From positions 32,001 to 96,000 of the IMG/VR virus record IMGVR_UViG_3300033149_004566: a stretch of 64,000 nt of DNA. The stretch is one strand, 5' to 3'. The stretch is from a virus. Below are positions 52,810-64,000 of the stretch, in pieces (within the stretch, counting starts at the first letter, position 1; every line of letters begins with the position of its first letter). The position numbers and the translations under genes are program-made. The notes under the pieces are model-generated. The model did no database searches and was not told the origin of the DNA. It worked only from the letters and a program-made list of their open reading frames with translations.

Positions 52810-53742
52810 ATGAAAGAAATAAAAATAATCTGTGGAAATCGTGGAGGTTGCGGAAAAACCAGGTTGATGGTTGCGGAAACAATCTTTCACATTCGCAAGA
52901 ATCAGAAAACGGTGACGTTCGATTGGAATCTTAATAATCCGGATTTTCTCGCCATAATGCATTTCTTTAACAAGGATCACACTGAGATAGACAATAGGAT
53001 AATTTCTACTGAAGTTTTCGTGGACAACACAAAAAAGAGGCTGAAAATATTTTATCCGATGAATGCACATCAATTACAGGACGATGAATTTTGGAAATAT
53101 TTAAAAGGTGTTTTAGATTCGACAAGAAGAGACACCATACTCATTGTTGATACCAGGGTAGATATAACCAGATTGCCGTGCTGGAATGGCGAGTGCGTCA
53201 AGTACATGGAGAGATTTAAGGACATCAAAATAACCATTTATTATATTTGGGGTTGGGTCTATAGATATGATGAGCTCGATCTCATCAAGCAATCGTACGG
53301 ATGGCTGAGAAAATATCTTCCAAATGTCAACTTCGTGCACGTGTGGAACGTAAACGAGCAAAAAAATCCCAAGAAATTGTTCAAGTCAATATACAAAAAA
53401 TACAAGAAATTGTTGTTGAAAAGCACTAAAAGAAGAATTTCAATAAGGACGTTATTGGAATTGATAGAATCTTTAAACTTCTCGCACGATACGGATGAAG
53501 TTGATGCAAACGACATACCTGAAGCGATATGGGAAGAATGTTTTGAAAAGATGATAGACATGGTTTCGGGAAAGCACGCGATTTACAACTGGCTTCTGAT
53601 ACCGGAAAAAATCGACATGTCGTTCAGCACCGATGCAGATATAGCCGGAAATAGAAGCGATATAAGATTATTGGAAAGCAACATGAAAAAGTTTTACAAA
53701 TACGTTTACGATTTTGAAAAAATGCGCGATAAACTGGCCTAG
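52810..53742 (+). CDS. ParA/MinD-like P-loop NTPase (divergent)
   Basis: GNRGGCGKT, TFDWN..NP, ILIVDT. Confidence 0.75.
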   Translation: MKEIKIICGNRGGCGKTRLMVAETIFHIRKNQKTVTFDWNLNNPDFLAIMHFFNKDHTEIDNRIISTEVFVDNTKKRLKIFYPMNAHQLQDDEFWKYLKGVLDSTRRDTILIVDTRVDITRLPCWNGECVKYMERFKDIKITIYYIWGWVYRYDELDLIKQSYGWLRKYLPNVNFVHVWNVNEQKNPKKLFKSIYKKYKKLLLKSTKRRISIRTLLELIESLNFSHDTDEVDANDIPEAIWEECFEKMIDMVSGKHAIYNWLLIPEKIDMSFSTDADIAGNRSDIRLLESNMKKFYKYVYDFEKMRDKLA

Positions 53743-53867
53743 AGTTTGCGATTATTGCGCGGGTTTTGTGCCTCCTTTCCCGCGCGTGTTCCGGACGGAC
53801 TGTCCCGCGGACAGGTTTACGGTTTTATCGTGCCAAAAAAAAATAAAATGTAAAAAGAGTTTGAATA

Positions 53868-53907
53868 AAAAAATTAATAAAAAAAGGCCCGCCTCTCGGC
53901 AGGGCCT
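53868..53907 (-). terminator. Hairpin + U-tract terminator of the leftward operon
   Basis: Minus strand AGGCCCtGCC-GAGA-GGCGGGCCT then TTTTTTATTAATTTTTTT, 2 nt after the stop. Confidence 0.75.
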
Positions 53908-53909
53908 GT

Positions 53910-54263
53910 TCATTCATCCAATTCCAATGCTTCTTCAGGATACCAGAAGTCGTTTTCCAGAAGGTAGAGTCCGTTTGATATCAACACGTCTTTTATTTTA
54001 AATGTCTTTCCGATAAATTTCTCCATTTTGCCGTCTATCCAAATGATTCCATCGTGTAGAAGCACTTTTTTTACTTTTACACTGTCGTTTATTTTAAACA
54101 TTTTTGGCGATTTATCGGTTATTTCCTGACATGTCGACGAACTACTGCTCTTATCGCACGACATGGCGCATTTTATTTTACATAAATGACAACATCTGTA
54201 AGATTTTACGATTTCGTTTTTACAACCATTATTTTTTATATGGATCTTACAATATATATTCAT
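53910..54263 (-). CDS. Cys-rich + SH3/KOW-like protein; stand-alone paralog of the E2 N-terminus
   Basis: YCK.HIK..GC.N.I.KSY.CC..C and I.D.....VL....I.W...W.P.E shared with 61980-63203. Confidence 0.8.
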   Translation of the reverse strand: MNIYCKIHIKNNGCKNEIVKSYRCCHLCKIKCAMSCDKSSSSSTCQEITDKSPKMFKINDSVKVKKVLLHDGIIWIDGKMEKFIGKTFKIKDVLISNGLYLLENDFWYPEEALELDE

Positions 54264-54264
54264 G

Positions 54265-54618
54265 TTACAACCTTCCTAACACGTCTTTTAACGTGTCTGT
54301 TACCGTTAGAGGAATGTTTTTTATTTTTTCTTTACTTTCGGTGTTATCTTTTTTATATTTTACGTGTTTCATTACAATGTACCACATCTGTATTATAAAT
54401 GCGGCCAGATGTGTCAACTTCATGGTATCTCCATTCTCTATCTCTATAAAAGTCTCGAGAAGAGAATTAAGATCTTCTTCAAATTTACTTCCAGAAAAAT
54501 CTCCTGCTGTTATGTGTAGCAGGTAAATCATTTCCATGGTTTCCGCAAAGTTTAATTTCTCGCGGAATAATTTATTTTTTAACTCGTATTTTCTTTTATC
54601 AATATCTACGCTTTTCAT
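54265..54618 (-). CDS. Hypothetical protein
   Basis: ATGA coupling; lacks the array Cys motif. Confidence 0.65.
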   Translation of the reverse strand: MKSVDIDKRKYELKNKLFREKLNFAETMEMIYLLHITAGDFSGSKFEEDLNSLLETFIEIENGDTMKLTHLAAFIIQMWYIVMKHVKYKKDNTESKEKIKNIPLTVTDTLKDVLGRL

Positions 54619-55004
54619 GTTCTATCACGCATTATATTTAATATGTTTCTATCATTATTTATTTTTTTTACCATATATTTAAATATGGTATCTTCGGATA
54701 AGTGTGTTATTATGACCGATGGATTACTTAAGGCACACATGATGTTTTCTTCGGTCGGGTTTTCATCGCAAATGTATGAACAATCCTTGCACGGATTGCA
54801 TGATTTGCAATAATATTCGAGAGCGGCCTTGATAAATAAGTCTATGATTATCGAACCAGTATTTTTCTTGAATCTGGTAATCATCCCGAAAAAATCTCCA
54901 TCTGTTATTCTTTTATTATTCGGTTGTTTACCAGACATCTTACATATTATTAAGTTTCCATATAAATTATAAATGATGACATTTGTTATTTCCACAATTA
55001 TCAT
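54615..55004 (-). CDS. CxxCxxCxxC array member 15
   Basis: YCKSCNPCKDC. Confidence 0.75.
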   Translation of the reverse strand: MIIVEITNVIIYNLYGNLIICKMSGKQPNNKRITDGDFFGMITRFKKNTGSIIIDLFIKAALEYYCKSCNPCKDCSYICDENPTEENIMCALSNPSVIITHLSEDTIFKYMVKKINNDRNILNIMRDRT

Positions 55005-55369
55005 CCTTCTACAGTTCTATAAATTTTGAGCAAGCGTCTTATTTCCGGAATCGTAAGCTCGTCAATAATATCTTCTATCTGGAACTCATCGAGATAGTTT
55101 TCAATGTTTCCCCATGTGTTTTCGACGATCTTTATCAGATCATCATGGTTGCATCTTGCCGGCAGCGTGCATTTTCTACCGGCACATATACGACAGTTTT
55201 TTACATGGGGATTATTATATATTATCGAACACACGTCATATTTGGTCATCAAATTTGTCTTTTCTATTATAAATTTAACGATGTCTGAAATAGCGTCTTG
55301 ATCGTATTCATCTTTTATGAACACTTTTTTTAATATTATGTTGCCAGACAATATTTCCATGCATATCAT
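55001..55369 (-). CDS. Array member 14 (divergent Cys spacing)
   Basis: CRICAGRKCTLPARC; IENYLDEFQIEDIIDELTIPEI. Confidence 0.7.
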   Translation of the reverse strand: MICMEILSGNIILKKVFIKDEYDQDAISDIVKFIIEKTNLMTKYDVCSIIYNNPHVKNCRICAGRKCTLPARCNHDDLIKIVENTWGNIENYLDEFQIEDIIDELTIPEIRRLLKIYRTVEG

Positions 55370-55734
55370 GTATTCATCTCCACCAGATATTTCATGATTA
55401 GATAGTCGAGCGGCAATTTTTCAGTTATTTTGTCCTTTGACACGAACTTCAATATTGATTTCACGTCGTAATATTCTCTTATGACAATACTAAATGGCGT
55501 TGTAGTGTAGTCGATCTCAACCAGATGACAGTCCAGACATTTTTTACAATTAAACCAATAGCATTCTATTTCTCTCATTAGCATATCTCCGTATTTTTTT
55601 TGTATTTTTTTCCAATCATTGAAATCTCTTGACGCTTGCCTGATCTCCAAGTAAACGTAATATCGTTCGGCTTTTACTGAAGTTCTCTCCATGATGGCAT
55701 TTTCTTTGTATATTTTACAAGTTACAACGTTCAT
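55366..55734 (-). CDS. Array member 13
   Basis: CYWFNCKKCLDC. Confidence 0.75.
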   Translation of the reverse strand: MNVVTCKIYKENAIMERTSVKAERYYVYLEIRQASRDFNDWKKIQKKYGDMLMREIECYWFNCKKCLDCHLVEIDYTTTPFSIVIREYYDVKSILKFVSKDKITEKLPLDYLIMKYLVEMNT

Positions 55735-56062
55735 GATAATACTCCAGTAAGATTTTGTTGTCTATACTTTTTAATCTGCGCTGCTCGGGTATTTCGATTA
55801 TTACTGCCGTTGCTCCGATAAAGTAGTACACGATATCGTGTAAAGTTAGTCCGCTGGCGTTAAAATAATTACAATATTCACACTTGTAGCATTCATCGAG
55901 TCTAAGATCACATGAAAGGACGTTTCCTATGATCTTAGATGTTAACAGATGGTGTCTGCGCAATATGATGAAAATTTTTTCCGCAATGACGTTGATATAA
56001 CGCATAACGTTTTTTGATAATATGTTTAAGGAATTCTTGAAGTCTATCACTTCAATTTTCAT
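55715..56062 (-). CDS. Array member 12
   Basis: C......CYKCEYCNYFNA...L.DIVY. Confidence 0.75.
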   Translation of the reverse strand: MKIEVIDFKNSLNILSKNVMRYINVIAEKIFIILRRHHLLTSKIIGNVLSCDLRLDECYKCEYCNYFNASGLTLHDIVYYFIGATAVIIEIPEQRRLKSIDNKILLEYYHERCNL

Positions 56063-56394
56063 CTTATTGCCCCCGTTTTTCTAAGATATGCTTTCTTCAA
56101 TTGTTTTTTAGAGAAACGTTTGAATATGTATTTTAAATCGACATGTTGTAATAATGCCCGCGGAGTGTAAACGGTATATATGATGTCTTCGAGTCCTTCG
56201 TAAAGGTTAATGTTGATGTAATCACAATCATCGCATGCTAACGGGCAGTCATCGCATAAATATTCATATACCGCTTTTTTTATTTCCGGGTTTATTACCG
56301 ATAAAACCCTAATGTTGACTGAAAATACGTCTGTGCTCTTACTAGATGCAGTTATTATATTTTTATAGGTTTCATTTAGAGATATCTTTAACAT
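56059..56394 (-). CDS. Array member 11
   Basis: LCDDCPLACDDCDY...LEDIIY. Confidence 0.78.
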   Translation of the reverse strand: MLKISLNETYKNIITASSKSTDVFSVNIRVLSVINPEIKKAVYEYLCDDCPLACDDCDYININLYEGLEDIIYTVYTPRALLQHVDLKYIFKRFSKKQLKKAYLRKTGAIR

Positions 56395-56692
56395 TATAAT
56401 CGACCATTAAATTAATATCAGATAGATATTTTAATATTAACTCTTTTCCTATGCATGTAAGTAAGATTTCTACGTTAAATATCGCGTATATCATCTTTCT
56501 CAAGCTGAAAAACGAGTTAAAATCGGCTCCATCACAATCGTCACACTTGTCGCAATTTTCACACAATTTTTCATACACTATTTTTTTCATGTCGGTTTTT
56601 GTCATCGTGATAATCAATTGTATTAATTTTATAATGTTGCCAGACGACATTAATCTATTTTTATGTATCTCACAATATATTATTTTTATCAT
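56372..56692 (-). CDS. Array member 10
   Basis: LCENCDKCDDCD...LRKMIY. Confidence 0.78.
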   Translation of the reverse strand: MIKIIYCEIHKNRLMSSGNIIKLIQLIITMTKTDMKKIVYEKLCENCDKCDDCDGADFNSFFSLRKMIYAIFNVEILLTCIGKELILKYLSDINLMVDYNVKDISK

Positions 56693-56987
56693 TATAATCG
56701 ACTATCAAGATTTCATCGTGCAAGTGTTTTAATATTTCCGACTTTCCTATAAAAGAAAGCACGGTTTTTATATTGTATATATCATATATCAATTTTTTCA
56801 GGTCTAAAATAACCCTCATGTTTAATCCATCACATACATCACACATATCACATTCGTTGCAATAATCTGGAATTGCTTTTTTTAATGCATAACGAAGATC
56901 GTAAATGACTGCAAGCCCCTTTAATTCAAAATCGTTTTTTTTGGACTGTAATTTCAAATTTTTATGATACAGGATTATATAATTCAA
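56670..56987 (-). CDS. Array member 9
   Basis: YCNECDMCDVCD...LKKLIY. Confidence 0.78.
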   Translation of the reverse strand: MNYIILYHKNLKLQSKKNDFELKGLAVIYDLRYALKKAIPDYCNECDMCDVCDGLNMRVILDLKKLIYDIYNIKTVLSFIGKSEILKHLHDEILIVDYNDKNNIL

Positions 56988-56988
56988 C

Positions 56989-57300
56989 TCACTCCACTGT
57001 CCTCAATTCCAGTTCGTTTAACAGGTCTCCGGTTTTTAATTTCTCGAGGATGTCTTTCACGTTTATATGTTTTAATACGTTCAAAAAACCAAATACATAA
57101 TATATCATGTAGAAAATAGATTTATTGCGGCTATCCACGAATTCGCATCTCTCACACATGTTACATTTGTTACAATAATCCTGAAATATAGTTATCTTGA
57201 CAGCTGGATGCATGTACATGGGATCGACAATTAATGAGATTGACGAATTGTCTAAGGACATAAATTTCAAGTTTAAATATTTAGTTCTCAATATTTTCAT
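56989..57300 (-). CDS. Array member 8
   Basis: YCNKCNMCERCEF...MIY. Confidence 0.78.
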   Translation of the reverse strand: MKILRTKYLNLKFMSLDNSSISLIVDPMYMHPAVKITIFQDYCNKCNMCERCEFVDSRNKSIFYMIYYVFGFLNVLKHINVKDILEKLKTGDLLNELELRTVE

Positions 57301-57641
57301 ATCGTCGCATCCGTAAGACGATTTAATAAGTAATCAGTGTCAATATTTTTGAGCAGAATTGTTTTCTCTATGCATGTTATTATGTCAAATAATTCAAAAT
57401 AATCGTTTACTATTTGTCTGATTGTCATAAAAGATGCATCAAAATATTCACAGTTATCACATCGCACGCAATAGTTACAAATATTATCCCAGAGCACGTC
57501 GTAATACTCCGTGCTTCCAAAAAATTCACTTGTAATTAACATGTATGATAACAACTTGTATACGCTTGCTCTATCATCAAGACCCACTGATATTTTTTCG
57601 CCACTCATATTTTGCACGATATCGACAAACATAATTTTCAT
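57297..57641 (-). CDS. Array member 7
   Basis: ICNYCVRCDNCEYFDA. Confidence 0.78.
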   Translation of the reverse strand: MKIMFVDIVQNMSGEKISVGLDDRASVYKLLSYMLITSEFFGSTEYYDVLWDNICNYCVRCDNCEYFDASFMTIRQIVNDYFELFDIITCIEKTILLKNIDTDYLLNRLTDATI

Positions 57642-57982
57642 TAACCATGCTCCTCCAAGTGTTGCATTAATTTTTTCGTGCTCAGATATTTTAGCATTGT
57701 TTTTTTATCCACATAATTCATAATTTCATATATATCAAAATATTCGTATATAATATCTCCTAAATACATTGCAGCGGCGTTGAAGTAGTCACAGTCGCTA
57801 CATATTTCACAACTGTCACACACGCCACTAAATTCATCATGTATCATGGAGTACAATTTTTCGCATCTAATTGCATTCAGAAAGAAACCAATATTTTCAC
57901 ATTTGATGACGTTTGACTGCAATCTTTTCAGGTTTCTTACATCCAAATCATGAATTACGGATACGGACATTGCCATTTTCAT
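57641..57982 (-). CDS. Array member 6
   Basis: VCDSCEICSDCDYFNA...LGDIIY. Confidence 0.78.
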   Translation of the reverse strand: MKMAMSVSVIHDLDVRNLKRLQSNVIKCENIGFFLNAIRCEKLYSMIHDEFSGVCDSCEICSDCDYFNAAAMYLGDIIYEYFDIYEIMNYVDKKTMLKYLSTKKLMQHLEEHG

Positions 57983-58347
57983 GCTATCGTCGCCCTTTCA
58001 AAATAAGATTTTAACATGTCGGTGGACACGTGATCGAGCAACACGCGCTTGCTCCATTTTGATGCAATGTGTTTTAAGATCTCATAATCGCCAAATTTAC
58101 TATATATGATGTTATCAAGTGATGGATCGGTTGCATCAAAAAAATTACAGTAAATGCATTTATCACATTTATAACATATATATTTTTTAATAAATTCTCT
58201 ATCGTGTATCATTCTATCTGGATCTGCGATTTTTCTCGACAGATAATATATGATGTCGTCGTCGTCTACATTTAACATATAAAGATAATAATCGGTTTTT
58301 AAGTTTCTTGTTGTCAAAAGCATCCCATCAAACAATAATATTTTCAT
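57979..58347 (-). CDS. Array member 5
   Basis: ICYKCDKCIYCNFFDA...LDNIIY. Confidence 0.78.
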   Translation of the reverse strand: MKILLFDGMLLTTRNLKTDYYLYMLNVDDDDIIYYLSRKIADPDRMIHDREFIKKYICYKCDKCIYCNFFDATDPSLDNIIYSKFGDYEILKHIASKWSKRVLLDHVSTDMLKSYFERATIA

Positions 58348-58657
58348 CCTTTTTCACCAATGCGTTCGTATCGATGTGTTTTAGTATGGCAGTTTTTTCC
58401 ACGTATTTCAATAATTCGTGGCTATCAAACATCAAATATATCATTTCCTCCAAGCTTTTAAATATGGAGTAGTTGATATATTCGCATCCCACGCATGTTT
58501 GACATTGCCCACATTTCACGTGCTTGAAGGTGGCAAGCGCGTCTTCTTCTAACATGGCGTCTTGAAAAGGCTCTAAAAAATACGGATCGATACCGTTATA
58601 TTTACAAAATTTAAAAGATAGATTTTGTTTATCTGTGCAAAATAACAATACTTTCAT
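58328..58657 (-). CDS. Array member 4
   Basis: KCGQCQTCVGCEY...LEEMIY. Confidence 0.78.
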   Translation of the reverse strand: MKVLLFCTDKQNLSFKFCKYNGIDPYFLEPFQDAMLEEDALATFKHVKCGQCQTCVGCEYINYSIFKSLEEMIYLMFDSHELLKYVEKTAILKHIDTNALVKKDENIIV

Positions 58658-58997
58658 TCTTCAACCTCCATAAAGTCCGCAGTGAATCATTTGACAAGTG
58701 CGAAAGCATGTGAATTTTTTTGACGTGGGCTAAAATTAATCTGACTCCGAACACCGAATATATTATTTCTCTTAGAATTTCATTGCCGTCAAAGTATTCG
58801 CATCTATTGCATTTATCACAGTTGCAGCACAGCACTTCGTACAGCTTTTCAAATAACATGTCATTGTTAAAAAATCCCACGCATGATAACGTTTTTTTCA
58901 TGCCATTATGGCCCAATAGATACGATGAATGTTTCCGTATCAGTATTTCAAGAGCAGCTTTATTGTGTATGATGTATTTCAACAATTTAATATTCAT
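58629..58997 (-). CDS. Array member 3
   Basis: LCCNCDKCNRCEYFD...LREIIY. Confidence 0.78.
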   Translation of the reverse strand: MNIKLLKYIIHNKAALEILIRKHSSYLLGHNGMKKTLSCVGFFNNDMLFEKLYEVLCCNCDKCNRCEYFDGNEILREIIYSVFGVRLILAHVKKIHMLSHLSNDSLRTLWRLKNESIVILHR

Positions 58998-59367
58998 GGC
59001 AAGCTGTCCCGTATCTTTGTAATAAAACTTCGTTGGATATTCTATGCATCATTTCTGATGCCGTTAAACCAACATTATTTTTTAGTTCTTCGAGAATATT
59101 TCTTGTATAGTATATGTTTTTTACTACATATTCTAATGGAAACATGTTTACGAGAATTCTGCCCCGTTTACAGATACAAACATTACATAATTTATCACTC
59201 AGCTCTTTTGAAAAATATTTTAATTTTCTATAAACACGTTTTATCGGCCACATGTTTACGTGATCGTTCAATATGAGATGATATTTTGAACGATTATTGT
59301 TATTAAATTCTGTTATTATTGCTTTCATTTTTTCTTTCACCAAAAAAGTGGAGTTATAAAACTCCAC
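58987..59367 (-). CDS. Array member 2 (degenerate, 3 Cys in motif)
   Basis: LCNVCICK...LEYVV..IY. Confidence 0.65.
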   Translation of the reverse strand: MEFYNSTFLVKEKMKAIITEFNNNNRSKYHLILNDHVNMWPIKRVYRKLKYFSKELSDKLCNVCICKRGRILVNMFPLEYVVKNIYYTRNILEELKNNVGLTASEMMHRISNEVLLQRYGTACHEY

Positions 59368-59719
59368 GCCTGATTAACTCGTTTTTTATGTCGTCTATCG
59401 AAAGAAAATCCAACATGTCTTCGACGTCTATGGCATCCAATAGTTCGTCCATTGTAATTCTCCCGTCCATTAGAGTCGTGACGAAGTGGTGGGCGTCGTA
59501 TAATACCTTATCACAGTTTTCACACCTGTCGCAATTTTCACAGAAAACGTCCTCGATCGCTCCGCGTAATACTGACAGCAATTTACTTTCGTCGTCTTCG
59601 AGGACATAATATATATCGTGTATGAATTCCTCCATCTCCTCATATAAAGACAGGTTGTAGATTTTTTTGAATAATTTTTTATCTTTGCCTACCGTGGTGT
59701 TATATATAATCACGTACAC
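59354..59719 (-). CDS. Array member 1 (most acidic)
   Basis: FCENCDRCENCD; MDELLDAIDVEDMLDFLSIDDI. Confidence 0.78.
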   Translation of the reverse strand: MYVIIYNTTVGKDKKLFKKIYNLSLYEEMEEFIHDIYYVLEDDESKLLSVLRGAIEDVFCENCDRCENCDKVLYDAHHFVTTLMDGRITMDELLDAIDVEDMLDFLSIDDIKNELIRRGVL

Positions 59720-60174
59720 TACAGCACCTCAACGTATTCATTGCAATAGAAGCAAAAATACTTCTTTTCTCTTCTATCATACGCGGATTTTTTTCCGCAC
59801 ACGACACACGACCTTTTATGAAGATCTTCCACGCTATCACATGGTATCGGCTCCAATTTTTCAAACAAACTGTCGTCGCGTTTTGATATTCCTTGTACTA
59901 TGTTTACCAACATGTGCCATATTTTTGCTACCTGTATTGGGTCGTATTCATATTTTAATGCGTCGAGCACGTATGCTTGTGTTTTATTTTTTATAATCAC
60001 GTGTCCGAGATATTCTGATTTGGCAATATTCTCCGGCGTGTTCCATGGATGAGACCAGAACAGTATGGCGGATAATCTGACGTCATAATTTCCGCCTTTT
60101 TCAACGTCTCTTTTTTCGCAATACCTGAAAATCTTGTCTATGGTGTTGTAATAATACATGCCTAGGAAATTCAA
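59719..60174 (-). CDS. Hypothetical protein with C-terminal zinc ribbon
   Basis: CVVCG...YFCFYC; coupled to E1 and to array member 1. Confidence 0.75.
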   Translation of the reverse strand: MNFLGMYYYNTIDKIFRYCEKRDVEKGGNYDVRLSAILFWSHPWNTPENIAKSEYLGHVIIKNKTQAYVLDALKYEYDPIQVAKIWHMLVNIVQGISKRDDSLFEKLEPIPCDSVEDLHKRSCVVCGKKSAYDRREKKYFCFYCNEYVEVL

Positions 60175-60845
60175 GACGTGAGCACCATGAAATTTTCTAC
60201 ATCATAATCATATCTGAAATGATTTTTGTCCGCGTTATCACGGATTTCATTAAATATCAGGGCGCAGGCGGTTGCTGCGACTTGATTCAACGTGAAAATT
60301 ATGGTTTGCTGTGTACACGGAATGTCAAGTGTTTTTCTATCTAATGTCTCTGCCCAATTATCGATTTTTTCTGGTGTCACGTAGAACACCGCGCAGAATA
60401 GTCCTCCTGTTCTTGCGTCGATTATAGTTCTCTTGTTTTTTAAAAGGACGTCTTTCACTATTTTTCTAGAGGTCATCGAGTCGACTCCGAGAACGACAAA
60501 GTCGCACTCTTTGAACTCATTCACGTGGTTTTTTCCGAACAATTCGTTGTACTTGATGACTTCAACTCTTCCAGGAGATACTTGCTTGATTCGGTTTTCA
60601 AGAGCGTCTACCTTTGGAAGATCTACTTCGTCCCTGAAGAAGAATTGATTCGGAAGGTTGTGCTCTTCGATCACGTCATCATCAAACAGCACGAATTTTC
60701 CGACGCCCATTTTTGCCAGCATCGTGCATATGATGGAGCCGACAGAGCCACATCCTATCATCATGACGCTTACATCCTGTATTGTTTCGGGATTAATCCA
60801 TCCCGATTGCCTCAAAAAGGTATTTATAATGTTCATCTTTATCAA
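60171..60845 (-). CDS. ThiF/E1-like Ubl-activating enzyme
   Basis: RQ, IGCGSVGS, FDDDVIEEHNLPNQ, PKV, GVDS, IDAR.GG; putative catalytic Cys in IPCTQ. Confidence 0.95.
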   Translation of the reverse strand: MIKMNIINTFLRQSGWINPETIQDVSVMMIGCGSVGSIICTMLAKMGVGKFVLFDDDVIEEHNLPNQFFFRDEVDLPKVDALENRIKQVSPGRVEVIKYNELFGKNHVNEFKECDFVVLGVDSMTSRKIVKDVLLKNKRTIIDARTGGLFCAVFYVTPEKIDNWAETLDRKTLDIPCTQQTIIFTLNQVAATACALIFNEIRDNADKNHFRYDYDVENFMVLTS

Positions 60846-62056
60846 CTATAATAATTGATTCTTTTTCTCGATTTTTTGATTATATAACTTCGTTTATTCA
60901 CGTTGTAATAATTATGATAATCGCTTTTCGCTACGACGACGTCTTTTTTGTCAATCCATTCATATATGCCGTCTATTTTGACTAGATATTTGTCATTGCC
61001 TTCGATTATTATCTCGCCAGGTTTCATCGCATAGTTGTCATTTTTTACAGCACATTTTTTAAGAGATCGTGAGCTGTAAGATTTTTTTATCATTGTTTTT
61101 ACCTTTTCTACGAACTCTATGACTTTCGGATCGTTCATCATGGAATCTGGATCTCCGTAGAATTTTATCTCCTTGCATTTTTTGTGAACGTCTCCAGGAT
61201 AATCTATTTGCACGTGCGACTTCATGGTTGTAAAATTCATGTTTTCAGTGAACGACGTTACTACACTGAGTACGGCCGGCCATCCCATTTTTAGGAATAG
61301 ATCGATCGTTGATTTATCTGTTCCGGATATGAACGTTGACATTGATCCGTGGCTATGCCACGTGCCTATTATTGACTCCTTTTCAAATGGTTTTGTTGGA
61401 GCTTTTATCATTTCGATGTTAGAGATTCCGTAATCCTCCAACGCATCTTTTTCATAGTCAACCGAACCGGACGTTACGCTCTGTTTGATTATCACCAACT
61501 CAGTGATGAGTATTTTCATCAGTTTGCCATCGTCGTATGTTTTTTTACCTATTATTAGGCCTCCAATTTCGCTGTTGCCAAATGACAACGTGAGAAGGGC
61601 TATTTCAGCTGCAACCTGTTCGCTAAAATATACTTCAAAGTCCTGTTTTATTTCTTTCTTTTTCGTATATTTCGCGAGCGTTTTTATCTTCTTCTTTTTT
61701 AGATCTCTCTCCTGCCATAAAGTATAGATTTTGTAGTTCCCAACCCATTTTATACATAAGTCGCGAGCGTCGCACAACTTTTTATTGTCAGTATTTTTAC
61801 ACGTCAGACATTTTTCGTCGTAGCTGTAATCATCTAAATGACGATCGATTTCGTTCTCATATAGATCTACATCGTAAAGCACGTAATATGGGTCATAATG
61901 CTTGTAGTCCTCGTTCTTACAAACTTTACATAGATCGTCATTGCCATTGAGATACCACGCGCATTTTTCGCATATTCTTTCATCCATTTCTACACCCCAT
62001 GCATAGTCCATCTTTATCCAAGGCAAACATTTTTCCGCATGATACACATTCGTCAT
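60842..62056 (-). CDS. JAB/MPN+ metallopeptidase with Cys-rich N-terminal region
   Basis: EIGG...Q.V...V...GTWHSHGSMSTFISGTD (E...HxH...S..D). Confidence 0.93.
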   Translation of the reverse strand: MTNVYHAEKCLPWIKMDYAWGVEMDERICEKCAWYLNGNDDLCKVCKNEDYKHYDPYYVLYDVDLYENEIDRHLDDYSYDEKCLTCKNTDNKKLCDARDLCIKWVGNYKIYTLWQERDLKKKKIKTLAKYTKKKEIKQDFEVYFSEQVAAEIALLTLSFGNSEIGGLIIGKKTYDDGKLMKILITELVIIKQSVTSGSVDYEKDALEDYGISNIEMIKAPTKPFEKESIIGTWHSHGSMSTFISGTDKSTIDLFLKMGWPAVLSVVTSFTENMNFTTMKSHVQIDYPGDVHKKCKEIKFYGDPDSMMNDPKVIEFVEKVKTMIKKSYSSRSLKKCAVKNDNYAMKPGEIIIEGNDKYLVKIDGIYEWIDKKDVVVAKSDYHNYYNVNKRSYIIKKSRKRINYYS

Positions 62057-63203
62057 AGCCGACGACTATTTTACAGAAATCCGTTATATATGAATCTTCT
62101 GGATTGTATGTCACGCACATTTCTCTAATGAGTAGTACCAGGTTAACTATGTCCAACTGTGCAGACGCATTTTTTATGGCAACGCTAAAGCTGCCCATGC
62201 ATATCTTATCTGTACCGATATGTGGCGTGATATACGCATCATACGGGGCAAATGTTGGGCCCTCGTGTTTTACCAACACGGGATCCATTCCGATAGAGCA
62301 AGACCATGTGAACGTTCCGATCGGGATGTATTCCTCGCAATGATCGTTCTCGAAGTATAATTCTAGATCGTGATACACGACGTTTATTCCGTTGTCCACG
62401 ACCTCTACGTCGATGTTATCAAGTTTTTTTAATATTTCCAACGTTTTTGGCAAGTTTAATAGATTTTTATGACAGTTTTTGATGTTTTGTGATATTTCTC
62501 TTTTCTTAACGGCTGATTTGACGTTTGCAAGTAGGTTAAAATTGTACTTGAGAGCAATGTTAAATAACGGCAAGAATTCCGCAATTTTTTTGTCTGTTAA
62601 TTTTATCTCGTCTCCATTGACCACCGTTTCAACAAAGTTTTCTAAGACCGTATTTACGTTCGTTATGGCGTAAAAGTTTTCATCCAGTTTGGACGCTATG
62701 ATTTCGCCCTTCTCATTTACTATGATGGACTTGGCAATGAACGCGTCGCCGACTCTATCCATTAATATGAGGTGCGGGATTTCACCCTTGACGTCCGAGT
62801 TTAGATAATCGTCTATTGTCGACACCAACTTACCACCTTCAAAGTTAAATCTGTTAACGACCTCGTCTGGAAACCACATGTTGTCTTCCGATAAGTTAAC
62901 GAATCCCGGAATCCTGTCGACGACTATTTGAATTTTATTTAATGAATCAATTGCGTCTTCATCCCAATATATGGCTTTTGAAGCCAATACTCTGGTTATA
63001 TATGCCATGTCTCCAATTCTTAATCTTTTATCGTGTTCAAGAGTCTTATGTTCGCATTCGTTGTCGATGCCGATTGCACATCTATACGTTTCACAGTCTT
63101 CGTGGATCACGTCGCAAGCGGCACAGCACTTGTAACTTTTAATTATCTGGTTCGGACATCCGCCCGCTTTTATATGCTTTTTGCAATACATCGATGTTAT
63201 CAT
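61980..63203 (-). CDS. Prokaryotic E2-like (UBC fold) protein with N-terminal Cys/SH3-like module and C-terminal Zn finger
   Basis: TPHIGTDKICMG (PH...C catalytic motif), TYNPEDSY; lies between Ubl and JAB. Confidence 0.75.
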   Translation of the reverse strand: MITSMYCKKHIKAGGCPNQIIKSYKCCAACDVIHEDCETYRCAIGIDNECEHKTLEHDKRLRIGDMAYITRVLASKAIYWDEDAIDSLNKIQIVVDRIPGFVNLSEDNMWFPDEVVNRFNFEGGKLVSTIDDYLNSDVKGEIPHLILMDRVGDAFIAKSIIVNEKGEIIASKLDENFYAITNVNTVLENFVETVVNGDEIKLTDKKIAEFLPLFNIALKYNFNLLANVKSAVKKREISQNIKNCHKNLLNLPKTLEILKKLDNIDVEVVDNGINVVYHDLELYFENDHCEEYIPIGTFTWSCSIGMDPVLVKHEGPTFAPYDAYITPHIGTDKICMGSFSVAIKNASAQLDIVNLVLLIREMCVTYNPEDSYITDFCKIVVGYDECVSCGKMFALDKDGLCMGCRNG

Positions 63204-63218
63204 ACAAAATCACCACGT

Positions 63219-63500
63219 TTATCGAGGTAAAACTGTCATAAAAATGGGAAATAGGGGATTTTTATCATTTGTAATTCTTGTAGATTTGAAAGAAATTATT
63301 CCTTCCGGAATATCTTTTACGAGCGTGCTCTTGTTAATTATTTTTCCAGATATTACCATGGGTTGAGTACCATCTTTTACACTGATCTTTTCATCATCTA
63401 TTAATTGTTCAACGACCTGACTACAGGTCATATCCTCGTCAAATTCGACAGTATAGATGCCAATGCCCCAAATGGCGAAGTTAAGTTTTCTTTTTGTCAT
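63219..63500 (-). CDS. Ubiquitin-like beta-grasp protein, copy B (no Gly at conjugation position)
   Basis: Near-colinear paralog of 63505-63792; ends ...STRITND-KNPLFPIF. Confidence 0.7.
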   Translation of the reverse strand: MTKRKLNFAIWGIGIYTVEFDEDMTCSQVVEQLIDDEKISVKDGTQPMVISGKIINKSTLVKDIPEGIISFKSTRITNDKNPLFPIFMTVLPR

Positions 63501-63504
63501 GTTT

Positions 63505-63792
63505 TCAACTCTTTTGAGGAAAATTATTATAAAAAATAGGGAAAAGGGCTTTTTTGCCCTGTTTGATTTCCGGTGGCGTGAAGCTAATCATTCCTTCTGG
63601 AATGTCTTTCACGAGAGTGCTCACGTCAATCACTCTGCCAGATACTTTCATTACCTGGGCCCCGTCTTCTACACGAAGCTTTCCATCGATAATTAATTGT
63701 TCAACGACCTGACTGCAGGTCATATCCTCGTCAAATTCGGCAGTGTAAAGGCCAACGCCCCAAATGCCGAAGTTAAGTTTTCTTTTGGCCAT
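63505..63792 (-). CDS. Ubiquitin-like beta-grasp protein, copy A (...EIKQG + 16-aa extension)
   Basis: Ub-like pattern: two beta strands, E.D..MT...V...L, SGR.ID...L..D, last strand, G79. Confidence 0.75.
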   Translation of the reverse strand: MAKRKLNFGIWGVGLYTAEFDEDMTCSQVVEQLIIDGKLRVEDGAQVMKVSGRVIDVSTLVKDIPEGMISFTPPEIKQGKKALFPIFYNNFPQKS

Positions 63793-63797
63793 TTTTT

Positions 63798-63998
63798 TCA
63801 ACTCATCGGTTTTATCGTTGCACTGAAAGACGATTTTACAGGCACGTCTTCGAGGTGCAATAAAAATTCTTCATTTTCATTTATTTCGTTATTTCCTTTC
63901 GGATAATCTATCATGATGACACTTTCAATGTCATTCGCTTTTTTATAGATTATCCTGTACGAATTGTTTAAAATGCATCCTTTTTGGTATGCTAATAC
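63798..63998 (-). CDS. Partial hypothetical CDS (start outside the window)
   Basis: Open frame VLAYQKGC...TIKPMS*. Confidence 0.5.
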   Translation of the reverse strand, partial: VLAYQKGCILNNSYRIIYKKANDIESVIMIDYPKGNNEINENEEFLLHLEDVPVKSSFSATIKPMS

Positions 63999-64000
63999 GA

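Follow-up and report, generated by a model that had tools for sequence, protein, structure and literature searches.

A putative virus-encoded ubiquitin-like protein-conjugation cassette with a remote UBC homologue

Organisation of the cassette

The stretch of DNA analysed here, referred to as the window, comprises bases 32001-96000 (64,000 nucleotides, nt) of the 112,862-bp virus record IMGVR_UViG_3300033149_004566, which carries direct terminal repeats. It contains a compact gene cassette for two ubiquitin-like proteins (Ubl-a and Ubl-b), an E2-like protein (E2L), a JAB/JAMM metallopeptidase (JAB) and a minimal E1, which in our view probably provides the virus with a self-contained pathway of ubiquitin-like protein conjugation. 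The genes form five tightly packed open reading frames (ORFs) on the minus strand at 60171-63801 and are separated by gaps or overlaps of -4 to +15 nt, the exception being an overlap of 77 nt between the E2L and JAB genes, which is reduced to 8 nt if Met24 is the start of JAB. The original prediction had described a Ubl/E2/JAB/E1 cassette with intact catalytic residues at this locus, and translation bore out all five ORFs as well as every motif that had been named. The positions of the genes and of their functional segments are given in Table 1.

Table 1. Features of the cassette and of one related gene, in window coordinates (aa, amino acids).
Feature	Position	Strand	Basis or remark
Ubl-a, SAMP2/MoaD-like beta-grasp modifier, pro-form	63505..63792	-	Atlas structure neighbours, profile against PDB
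Gly82 of Ubl-a (Gly79 from ATG), predicted mature C-terminus	63556..63558	-	Aligned ends of relatives, codon checked
C-terminal tail of Ubl-a, 16 residues (KKALFPIFYNNFPQKS), predicted to be removed	63508..63555	-	Absent in L007 and L006 Ubls
Ubl-b, tandem paralogue of Ubl-a	63219..63500	-	Asp79 (63264-63266) in the Gly column
E2L, 407 aa	61980..63203	-	N-terminal Cys-rich/SH3-like module, helical linker, UBC-like core, C-terminal zinc ribbon
N-terminal module of E2L, residues 1-125, candidate target-binding part	62829..63203	-	Paralogy
UBC-like core of E2L, residues 243-397	62013..62477	-	Profile-profile homology
Active-site segment of E2L, P327-H328-x6-C335	62199..62225	-	Conservation, UBC alignment
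C-terminal zinc ribbon of E2L, CxxC...CxxC	61992..62048	-	Conserved Cys, translation
JAB/JAMM metallopeptidase, 404 aa, N-terminal Cys clusters	60842..62056	-	PADLOC JAB, JAMM residues
JAMM motif, HSH-x7-S-xx-D	61316..61357	-	Translation
Minimal E1, single ThiF-type adenylation domain, 224 aa	60171..60845	-	Pfam ThiF, PADLOC
Cys177 of E1, candidate thioester cysteine	60315..60317	-	Invariant in 27/27, translation
Stand-alone paralogue of the E2L N-terminal module	53910..54263	-	Far end of the Cys4 gene array

Conservation of the gene linkage

A scan with the E1 alignment yielded 28 E1-anchored viral loci, whose neighbouring genes were called with local hidden Markov models (HMMs); the near-duplicate pairs L034/L035, L025/L032 and L028/L029 are each counted separately in this number. 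In 23 of the 28 loci the E2L gene is a same-strand neighbour of the E1 gene, and a JAB gene was found in 27. The five loci without E2L are L009, L011, L014, L015 and L036, of which L011 is cut by the contig end. Two gene orders are equally frequent among the 23 loci with E2L, namely E2L-JAB-E1, which is the order in the window, and E2L-E1-JAB (11 loci each), while one locus contains E2L-E1.

A complete cassette is also present in a 64-kb virus found in the IMG/VR scan (L005/L006, cassette in L006) and in the metagenome contig that encodes the E2L relative P0005 (L007). A further complete cassette in window order lies on the 255-kb contig CAZTIW010000002.1 (68% GC; L158:3668-6926) of a Thermoanaerobaculia metagenome-assembled genome, where it may be part of a prophage; it consists of a Ubl ending in GG plus three residues (TAA), a 423-aa E2L, a 269-aa JAB and a 221-aa E1. 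None of the genes that flank the cassette in the window (151 aa at 59719-60174 on one side; 154 aa and 224 aa on the upstream side) has relatives at the other loci. The 154-aa protein gave a weak match of 15 residues to L007 (E 0.002), and the flanking genes were not counted as parts of the cassette. Since the flanking genes are not conserved together with the cassette, the unit is formed by Ubl, E2L, JAB and E1, and the cassette of Ubl, E2L, JAB and minimal E1 is a conserved viral type.

The E1 and JAB proteins

Judged from their sequences, the identification of both E1 and JAB is secure. The E1 matches Pfam ThiF (PF00899) with an E value of 3.7e-32 and 111.8 bits, above the cut-off of 28.1, and the Cap2-type E1-E2 models of PADLOC with up to E 4.6e-19, in their E1 part only. 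Its nearest named models in PADLOC and NCBIfam are ThiF, MoeB, the Cap2-type E1 and UbaA, all of which it matches well under their curated cut-offs. The motifs GCGSVG (60738-60755) and DDDVIEEHNLPNQ (60645-60683), together with Cys177 in IPCTQ, are present in the translation as predicted. Sixteen positions are invariant in all 27 distinct members of the family, among them Gly31, Gly33, Gly36, Asp55, Asp57, His62, Asn63, Asn66, Gln67, Lys78, Asp122, Arg127, Arg145 and Cys177, and Arg12 is common to 26 of the 27. The roles in nucleotide binding and adenylation that we presume for these residues are those assigned in MoeB and ThiF.

The JAB contains Glu163 and HSHGSMSTFISGTD, i.e., the predicted arrangement of Glu, HSH, Ser and Asp, and Glu163, His234, His236, Ser244 and Asp247 are invariant in all 26 family members. 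It matches the PADLOC JAB model PDLC00890 with an E value of 3.7e-9. A 322-aa protein of L007 was considered as a relative of this JAB and set aside, as the relationship is not clear.

The ubiquitin-like proteins

Ubl-a, which comprises 95 aa from the ATG (63792) and 98 aa from an upstream TTG (63801), and Ubl-b share 65% sequence identity (E 7e-45). Their pairwise ratio of nonsynonymous to synonymous substitution rates (dN/dS) is 0.32, from which it follows that both copies are under constraint; the value for the tail is 0.46. Neither protein was matched in Pfam, PADLOC, PHROGs or NCBIfam, and the homologue search returned only the two paralogues. The ESM Atlas model of Ubl-a has a predicted template modelling (TM) score of 0.58, and its ten nearest structure rows are all ubiquitin-like or beta-grasp clusters (TM 0.58-0.67, residues 4 to about 80), including TUG-UBL1, DDI1, RAD23, TmoB, YukD and ThiS.

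Correcting an earlier description, neither Ubl has a Gly at its C-terminal end. The Gly of Ubl-a is internal and followed by a tail of 16 residues, so that processing is needed; the tails of Ubl-a and Ubl-b have the motif LFPIF in common. The Ubls of L007 (80 aa, encoded just 5' of E2L) and L006 (91 aa) end at the Gly that aligns with Gly82. For 20 further loci, the Ubl ORF was chosen by visual inspection, namely the small ThiS-like ORF that lies closest 5' of E2L; L019 offered no upstream DNA. Of these 20 Ubls, 16 end in Gly or in Gly followed by one to three residues. The remaining four (L021, L023, L024, L033) end in KSAN, KNN or KNA and may represent a subgroup with different end chemistry. 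The E2L proteins of these four loci are long and have many CxxC zinc-ribbon repeats C-terminal to the core.

A profile of 22 Ubl sequences was compared with the PDB and matched SAMP2 (E 1.1e-4 for 5lda_B, 3.0e-4 and 4.6e-4), PF1061 (1.2e-4) and MoaD (1vjk, 1.6e-4), in alignments that reach the C-termini. The Pfam matches of single members are weak, with SAMP2 found in four and ThiS in three of the 22. Together, these results support placing the Ubls among the beta-grasp proteins of SAMP2/MoaD type.

The E2L family and its relation to UBC enzymes

E2L is a protein of four parts (Table 1). Its N-terminal module shares 32% identity (E 1e-17) with the stand-alone protein encoded at 53910-54263 and is also found in the E2L of L007 (phmmer E 2.3e-16). 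The predicted PH-x6-C motif was recovered in the translation as PHIGTDKIC. Relatives of the protein are difficult to find with single-sequence methods: the homologue search returned only the identical protein itself, phmmer against the PDB gave 0 matches, and a profile search (A3) returned only two proteins because the alignment was poor. HMMER with E2L over 1.84 billion representative proteins gave five matches, among them three usable relatives. P0004 (198 aa) is 42% identical to residues 207-401, while P0005 is a full-length relative with 29% identity. P0006, a GC-rich and bacterial-looking protein of 733 aa encoded on a 4,055-bp Logan contig, contains the E2L core twice, with a dense Cys-rich stretch after each copy, and a scan of genome contigs with it found no relative. 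P0007, a repeat protein matching residues 152-210 (E 2.2e-4), was dropped as probably spurious. The zinc-ribbon residues Cys386, Cys389, Cys401 and Cys404 are invariant in the window protein, P0004 and P0005. The IMG/VR scan revealed the same core in the 64-kb virus (L005/L006), and 22 proteins from viral loci are further relatives; no E2L of the HPH type was found among 74 phage records matching E1. An alignment of 23 cores (A8) was obtained, in which His328 and Cys335 (numbering of the window protein) are the only invariant columns; at least 90% of the sequences also share Pro327 and Gly337.

The relation to UBC enzymes was evaluated with profiles. A five-sequence E2L profile was compared with all PDB sequences, and all eight matches were E2 enzymes with a UBC domain (E 0.56-1.6), aligned at the catalytic Cys. 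The 23-sequence profile gave 65 matches at E<=10, and E2 enzymes accounted for 55 among the best 60 of these 65, the other five of the 60 being titin and viral VP2. As a reference for profile-profile alignment, true E2 genes were collected from giant-virus contigs with a degenerate DNA pattern of the active site and 23 of them were aligned (A9), all 23 proteins matching PF00179. Alignment of A8 with A9 by hhalign gave a probability of 92.6%, an E value of 4.7e-7 and a score of 46.0 over 123 aligned columns, in a register that places G-x-F, [T/H]PH...C and YNPxD of E2L on GGxF, HPN...C and PNPxD of UBC.

In 60 column shuffles of A8, the maximum score was 15.6 (mean 10.7, standard deviation 1.9), with a probability of at most 0.8% and E values of 0.07 or worse. 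The reversed A8 alignment scored 13.6, and the alignments of E1 and Ubl scored 20.5 and 10.1 against A9, respectively. The HPN triad of UBC enzymes is not present in E2L: in its place the family has H-P-H as its consensus and the window protein T-P-H, with the invariant His at the position of the UBC Asn. We describe E2L as a remote homologue of UBC enzymes, which is supported by well-controlled profile comparison and in which no residue is invariant except the His and Cys of PH-x6-C.

Proposed protein conjugation and alternative explanations

The original prediction favoured protein conjugation over cofactor synthesis. The assignment of the four parts is borne out, and three arguments uphold this preference, although conjugation itself is inferred. 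Firstly, E2L lies beside E1 in 23 of the 28 viral loci. Secondly, the genome contains no sulfur-relay gene: the absence of such genes nearby, which had been noted before, extends to the whole 112,862-bp record, in which searches for Rhodanese, ThiG, MoaE and Aminotran_5 (cysteine desulfurase) gave 0 matches each at E<=1. Thirdly, the best solved match of the Ubl profile is SAMP2, a modifier that is conjugated to proteins.

What the sequences establish are the genes present, their intact motifs, the homology of each part and the conserved linkage; the chemical steps are deduced from the protein families concerned, and where Ubl-a is cut, which protein is tagged and what the virus gains are likewise inferred. 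Ubl-a would be produced as a precursor, from which the JAMM peptidase would cut off the 16-residue tail and thereby expose Gly82. The single-domain E1, probably acting as a dimer like ThiF, MoeB or UBA5, would adenylate this Gly, and the activated Ubl-a would move onto the invariant Cys177 of E1. From there it would be transferred to Cys335 in the UBC-like core of E2L, which, without an E3 partner, might pick the target by means of its N-terminal Cys-rich/SH3-like module and its C-terminal zinc ribbon. JAB may also undo the modification, and Ubl-b, with an Asp at the Gly position, could be a non-activatable partner or regulator. Counter-defence, host takeover and superinfection exclusion, which had been put forward as uses of the cassette, are speculative.

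Several observations weigh against this reading. E2L has no match in Pfam, PADLOC, PHROGs or NCBIfam. The UQ_con and Prok-E2 HMMs do not match it at E<=1, nor do they match five members of its family at E<=10, and PF00179 and PF14461 each had 0 matches in the genome translated in all six frames. Of the profile checks that had been proposed with the original prediction, the one against ThiF was above its cut-off, the one against Prok-E2 gave no match, and JAB reached 21.0 bits against Pfam Prok-JAB (E 3.2e-4), under the cut-off of 25. The PDB matches of the E2L profile are singly not significant, with titin on top (E 0.036) and a best E2 at E 0.11. The ESM Atlas model of E2L is poor (predicted local distance difference test, pLDDT, 0.57) and none of its ten structure neighbours is an E2 (TM <=0.33). 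Deletion of the HPH..CxG segment lowered the hhalign score to 24.1 (probability 11.6%, E 0.0026), about half of the score coming from the active-site segment, and the N-terminal part alone scored 12.7, which is not significant; the C-terminal part alone scored 22.7, and the alignment without the segment still covers 115 columns in an unchanged register. From the controls and the segment deletion it follows that the homology between E2L and UBC is real by these controls, yet leans on the active site. As for the Ubls, Ubl-a has no free C-terminal Gly, its cleavage being assumed, and Ubl-b is unable to expose a Gly. No RNA run is listed among the public sequencing runs that contain the stretch. 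Finally, archaeal sampylation is not known to use any E2, and E2L may therefore be unnecessary for conjugation.

This last point leads to an explanation that is possible, if rather unlikely, in which E1, Ubl and JAB work without an E2, in the manner of UbaA, the SAMPs and JAMM1, and E2L serves as an adaptor or substrate, or is a His/Cys zinc protein unrelated to UBC, rather than a thioester carrier. It would agree with the SAMP2 matches of the Ubl profile, with the match of the single-domain E1 to the model of the SAMP-activating E1 (54.6 bits, far under the cut-off of 450), with the failure of all four domain libraries to recognise E2L, and with the five of 28 E1 loci at which E2L was not seen. 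However, the neighbourhood of E2L and E1 in the other 23 loci argues against a dispensable E2L, and its sole invariant residues, a His and a Cys, align with the UBC active site; an adaptor would not need them.

We consider it improbable that the system modifies the virus's own proteins in assembly or replication, or that the Ubls keep their tails and act non-covalently, like the lambda Ubl/JAB pair TAPI/TAPK in tail assembly, instead of tagging proteins of the host. The LFPIF motif retained in both tails, their dN/dS and the missing Gly of Ubl-b would fit such a role, and Ubl and JAB pairs lacking both E1 and E2 have been described in phages (Iyer et al. 2006, PMC1779556). However, a purely non-covalent scheme leaves an E1 that has kept its adenylation residues and an invariant Cys without a function, and the cassette is not located among the head and tail genes of the window.

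A sulfur carrier, in which E1 makes a Ubl thiocarboxylate for cofactor, tRNA or DNA thiolation, JAB matures the carrier as in CysO/Mec or QbsE/QbsD and the Cys of E2L relays a persulfide, is very unlikely: among named models E1 comes closest to ThiF and MoeB, the Ubl is ThiS/MoaD-like and a Gly with a short tail beside a JAB gene is a known sulfur-carrier pattern (Iyer 2006, PMC1779556), but all ThiF and MoeB matches of the curated models are far under their cut-offs, the genome lacks Rhodanese, ThiG, MoaE and cysteine desulfurase, and E2L aligns to UBC and not to rhodanese. Protein conjugation by a virus-encoded Ubl, E1 and E2L has the best support among these readings.

The virus and the surroundings of the cassette

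Genes for a large terminase, a head protein of the MuF type and a baseplate wedge protein in the window identify a tailed virus. The minus strand is the coding strand from about 54 kb to the end of the window. Searches for tRNA genes in the window and for Rfam families in 53000-64000 were both negative, and blastn of the cassette gave no match to phage records. The public sequencing runs that contain the stretch are two DNA runs only, both marine sediment metagenomes, which may be the source sample. The whole virus record contains exactly three ThiF matches. Complete circular genomes of Nidhogg viruses, which infect Helarchaeota of the Asgard archaea, have been described by Rambo et al. with three ThiF/E1-like homologues in the main text of the preprint (bioRxiv 10.1101/2021.07.29.454249). 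On a basis that includes the three ThiF matches and the origin from marine sediment, this is very probably the Nidhogg virus of Helarchaeota.

Two further groups of genes on the same strand are noteworthy. Directly after the 151-aa zinc-ribbon ORF 3' of E1 begins an array of about 14-15 back-to-back minus-strand paralogues (window 54615-59719) of about 105-129 aa, each with a CxxCxxCxxC cluster, which closes at the stand-alone gene of the E2L N-terminal module. Beyond the window, at genome positions 96893-103191 (L004:1893-8191), lies a second ubiquitin-type cluster, consisting of a vWA-like protein of 536 aa, an AAA_5 ATPase, two ThiF-domain proteins (364 aa and 384 aa), a JAB of 259 aa and two small ORFs without assignment. 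Searched with the cassette profiles, this cluster gave no E2L, Ubl or JAB match and one E1 match (E 9.8e-7). On its 5' side and on the same strand, seven genes in tandem (genome 105932-109020) encode paralogues of about 142-169 aa in which Cys motifs occur in pairs.

Sets of genes in the same order were also observed in culturable phages, namely Flavobacterium phage FpV4 (L037 1119-5130) and Bacteroides phage PhiCrAssBcn3 (L038 839-5193), where they lie beside genes for primase and uracil-DNA glycosylase. The first protein has a Ubl-like N-terminal part, a Gly and then a long extension, and is accompanied by a protein of 420-444 aa with YMHSH...C-x-G, a JAMM protein and an E1 annotated as "thiamine biosynthesis protein". 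The middle gene of FpV4 and of the crAss-like phage was tried as an E2L/UBC relative and rejected, as no link could be demonstrated (hhalign probability 7% and 0.3%, respectively). In two of the viral loci (L010:2477-2926 and L016:2839-3240), a small HExxH...H protein, by eye SprT/WLM-like, is encoded just 5' of the Ubl gene. The 64-kb virus encodes a protein that is ParB-like by eye three genes 5' of the Ubl (L006:4842-5462), which recalls the pairing of ParB and ThiF in PRTRC elements.

Significance

Prokaryotic ubiquitin-like conjugation has so far been characterised as a tool of the host, as in CBASS (an anti-phage signalling system based on cyclic oligonucleotides), Bil, Bub and sampylation. 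A complete kit owned by a virus would reverse this picture and raises the question of what viruses tag and why. Going further, we tentatively suggest, as a proposal that falls somewhat short of even odds, that tailed viruses of bacteria and archaea own a separate and widespread ubiquitin-type branch, made up of a SAMP2-like Ubl, a UBC-derived carrier with H-P-H...C, a JAMM peptidase and a minimal E1. The copy in the Asgard virus would then be an elaborated one, with two Ubls, one of them non-activatable, a long cleavable tail, an E2 fused to a duplicated binding module beside an array of 15 genes, and a second E1/JAB cluster 4 kb away.

Asgard archaea are the prokaryotes most closely related to eukaryotes, and a cassette in one of their viruses bears on the interplay of viruses and ubiquitin systems before eukaryotes arose. 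If the proposal is true, the virus could place tags of its own on a host already equipped with a eukaryote-like ubiquitin system. The carrier family, with its invariant His and Cys and its remote UBC homology, provides an entry point for searching viral data for kits of this sort. The published account of the Nidhogg virus, in its main text, considers E1 genes only and assumes the partners to come from the host (bioRxiv 10.1101/2021.07.29.454249).

Comparison with known systems

The best-scoring named models for E1 and JAB are those of type II CBASS, with Cap2 (E2-E1) and Cap3 (JAB), and of 6A-MBL cap2_3; against the NCBIfam model 6A-MBL_cap2_3, E1 reached an E value of 6.3e-17 and 61.4 bits, compared with a curated cut-off of 320. 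In CBASS and 6A-MBL, however, E2 and E1 are fused (in 6A together with JAB) and the C-terminus of a CD-NTase is activated, whereas the viral cassette has a Ubl and keeps its genes apart. No CD-NTase was found among the six proteins scanned with PADLOC, the rest of the genome not having been scanned for one. Archaeal sampylation (SAMP1-3, UbaA, JAMM1) resembles the cassette in its archaeal setting, the single-domain E1, the JAMM peptidase and the match of the Ubl to SAMP2, but differs in that Ubl-a carries a tail of 16 residues and E1 stays at 54.6 bits against the UbaA model (cut-off 450).

The PRTRC (ParB-related, ThiF-related) cassettes of plasmids and integrative and conjugative elements are likewise composed of Ubl, E2-like, JAB and E1 genes. 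Operon classes 6b-6d of Iyer et al. 2006 (PMC1779556) are also sets of this composition carried by mobile elements. Of the proteins in the window, only E1 matches the PRTRC models of NCBIfam, and weakly (PRTRC_ThiF, 32.9 bits, cut-off 144.75); JAB, E2L and the Ubls gave no match at E<=0.1. The curated thresholds of every named system tested are missed by the cassette. In the literature searched, which was incomplete and without supplements, no virus-encoded Ubl/E2/JAB/E1 cassette is described beyond the preprint of Rambo et al., whose main text mentions only three E1-like genes, proposed to harness the E2 and Ubl of the host, and contains the term "JAB" 0 times (bioRxiv 10.1101/2021.07.29.454249). 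Going beyond this account, the virus carries its own Ubls, E2L and JAB, although the supplements of the preprint (fig. S3, data S6-S7) may list more.

The closest likeness in architecture is to Bil (BilA-D), which also has separate Ubl, E2, JAB and E1 genes and no E3, and in which the E2 is thought to choose the target (PMC11601596). Bil differs from the viral cassette in being a host-encoded defence, and the feature described there for its E1 is not seen in the viral E1, which consists of 224 aa with one ThiF domain (PMC11601596). Unlike in Bil, the Ubl here is a single SAMP2/MoaD-like beta-grasp domain and the E2L escapes the Pfam and PADLOC models. The architecture of the cassette is thus of the Bil type, but combined with a minimal E1, a SAMP2-like Ubl and an E2 family that the domain libraries do not recognise.

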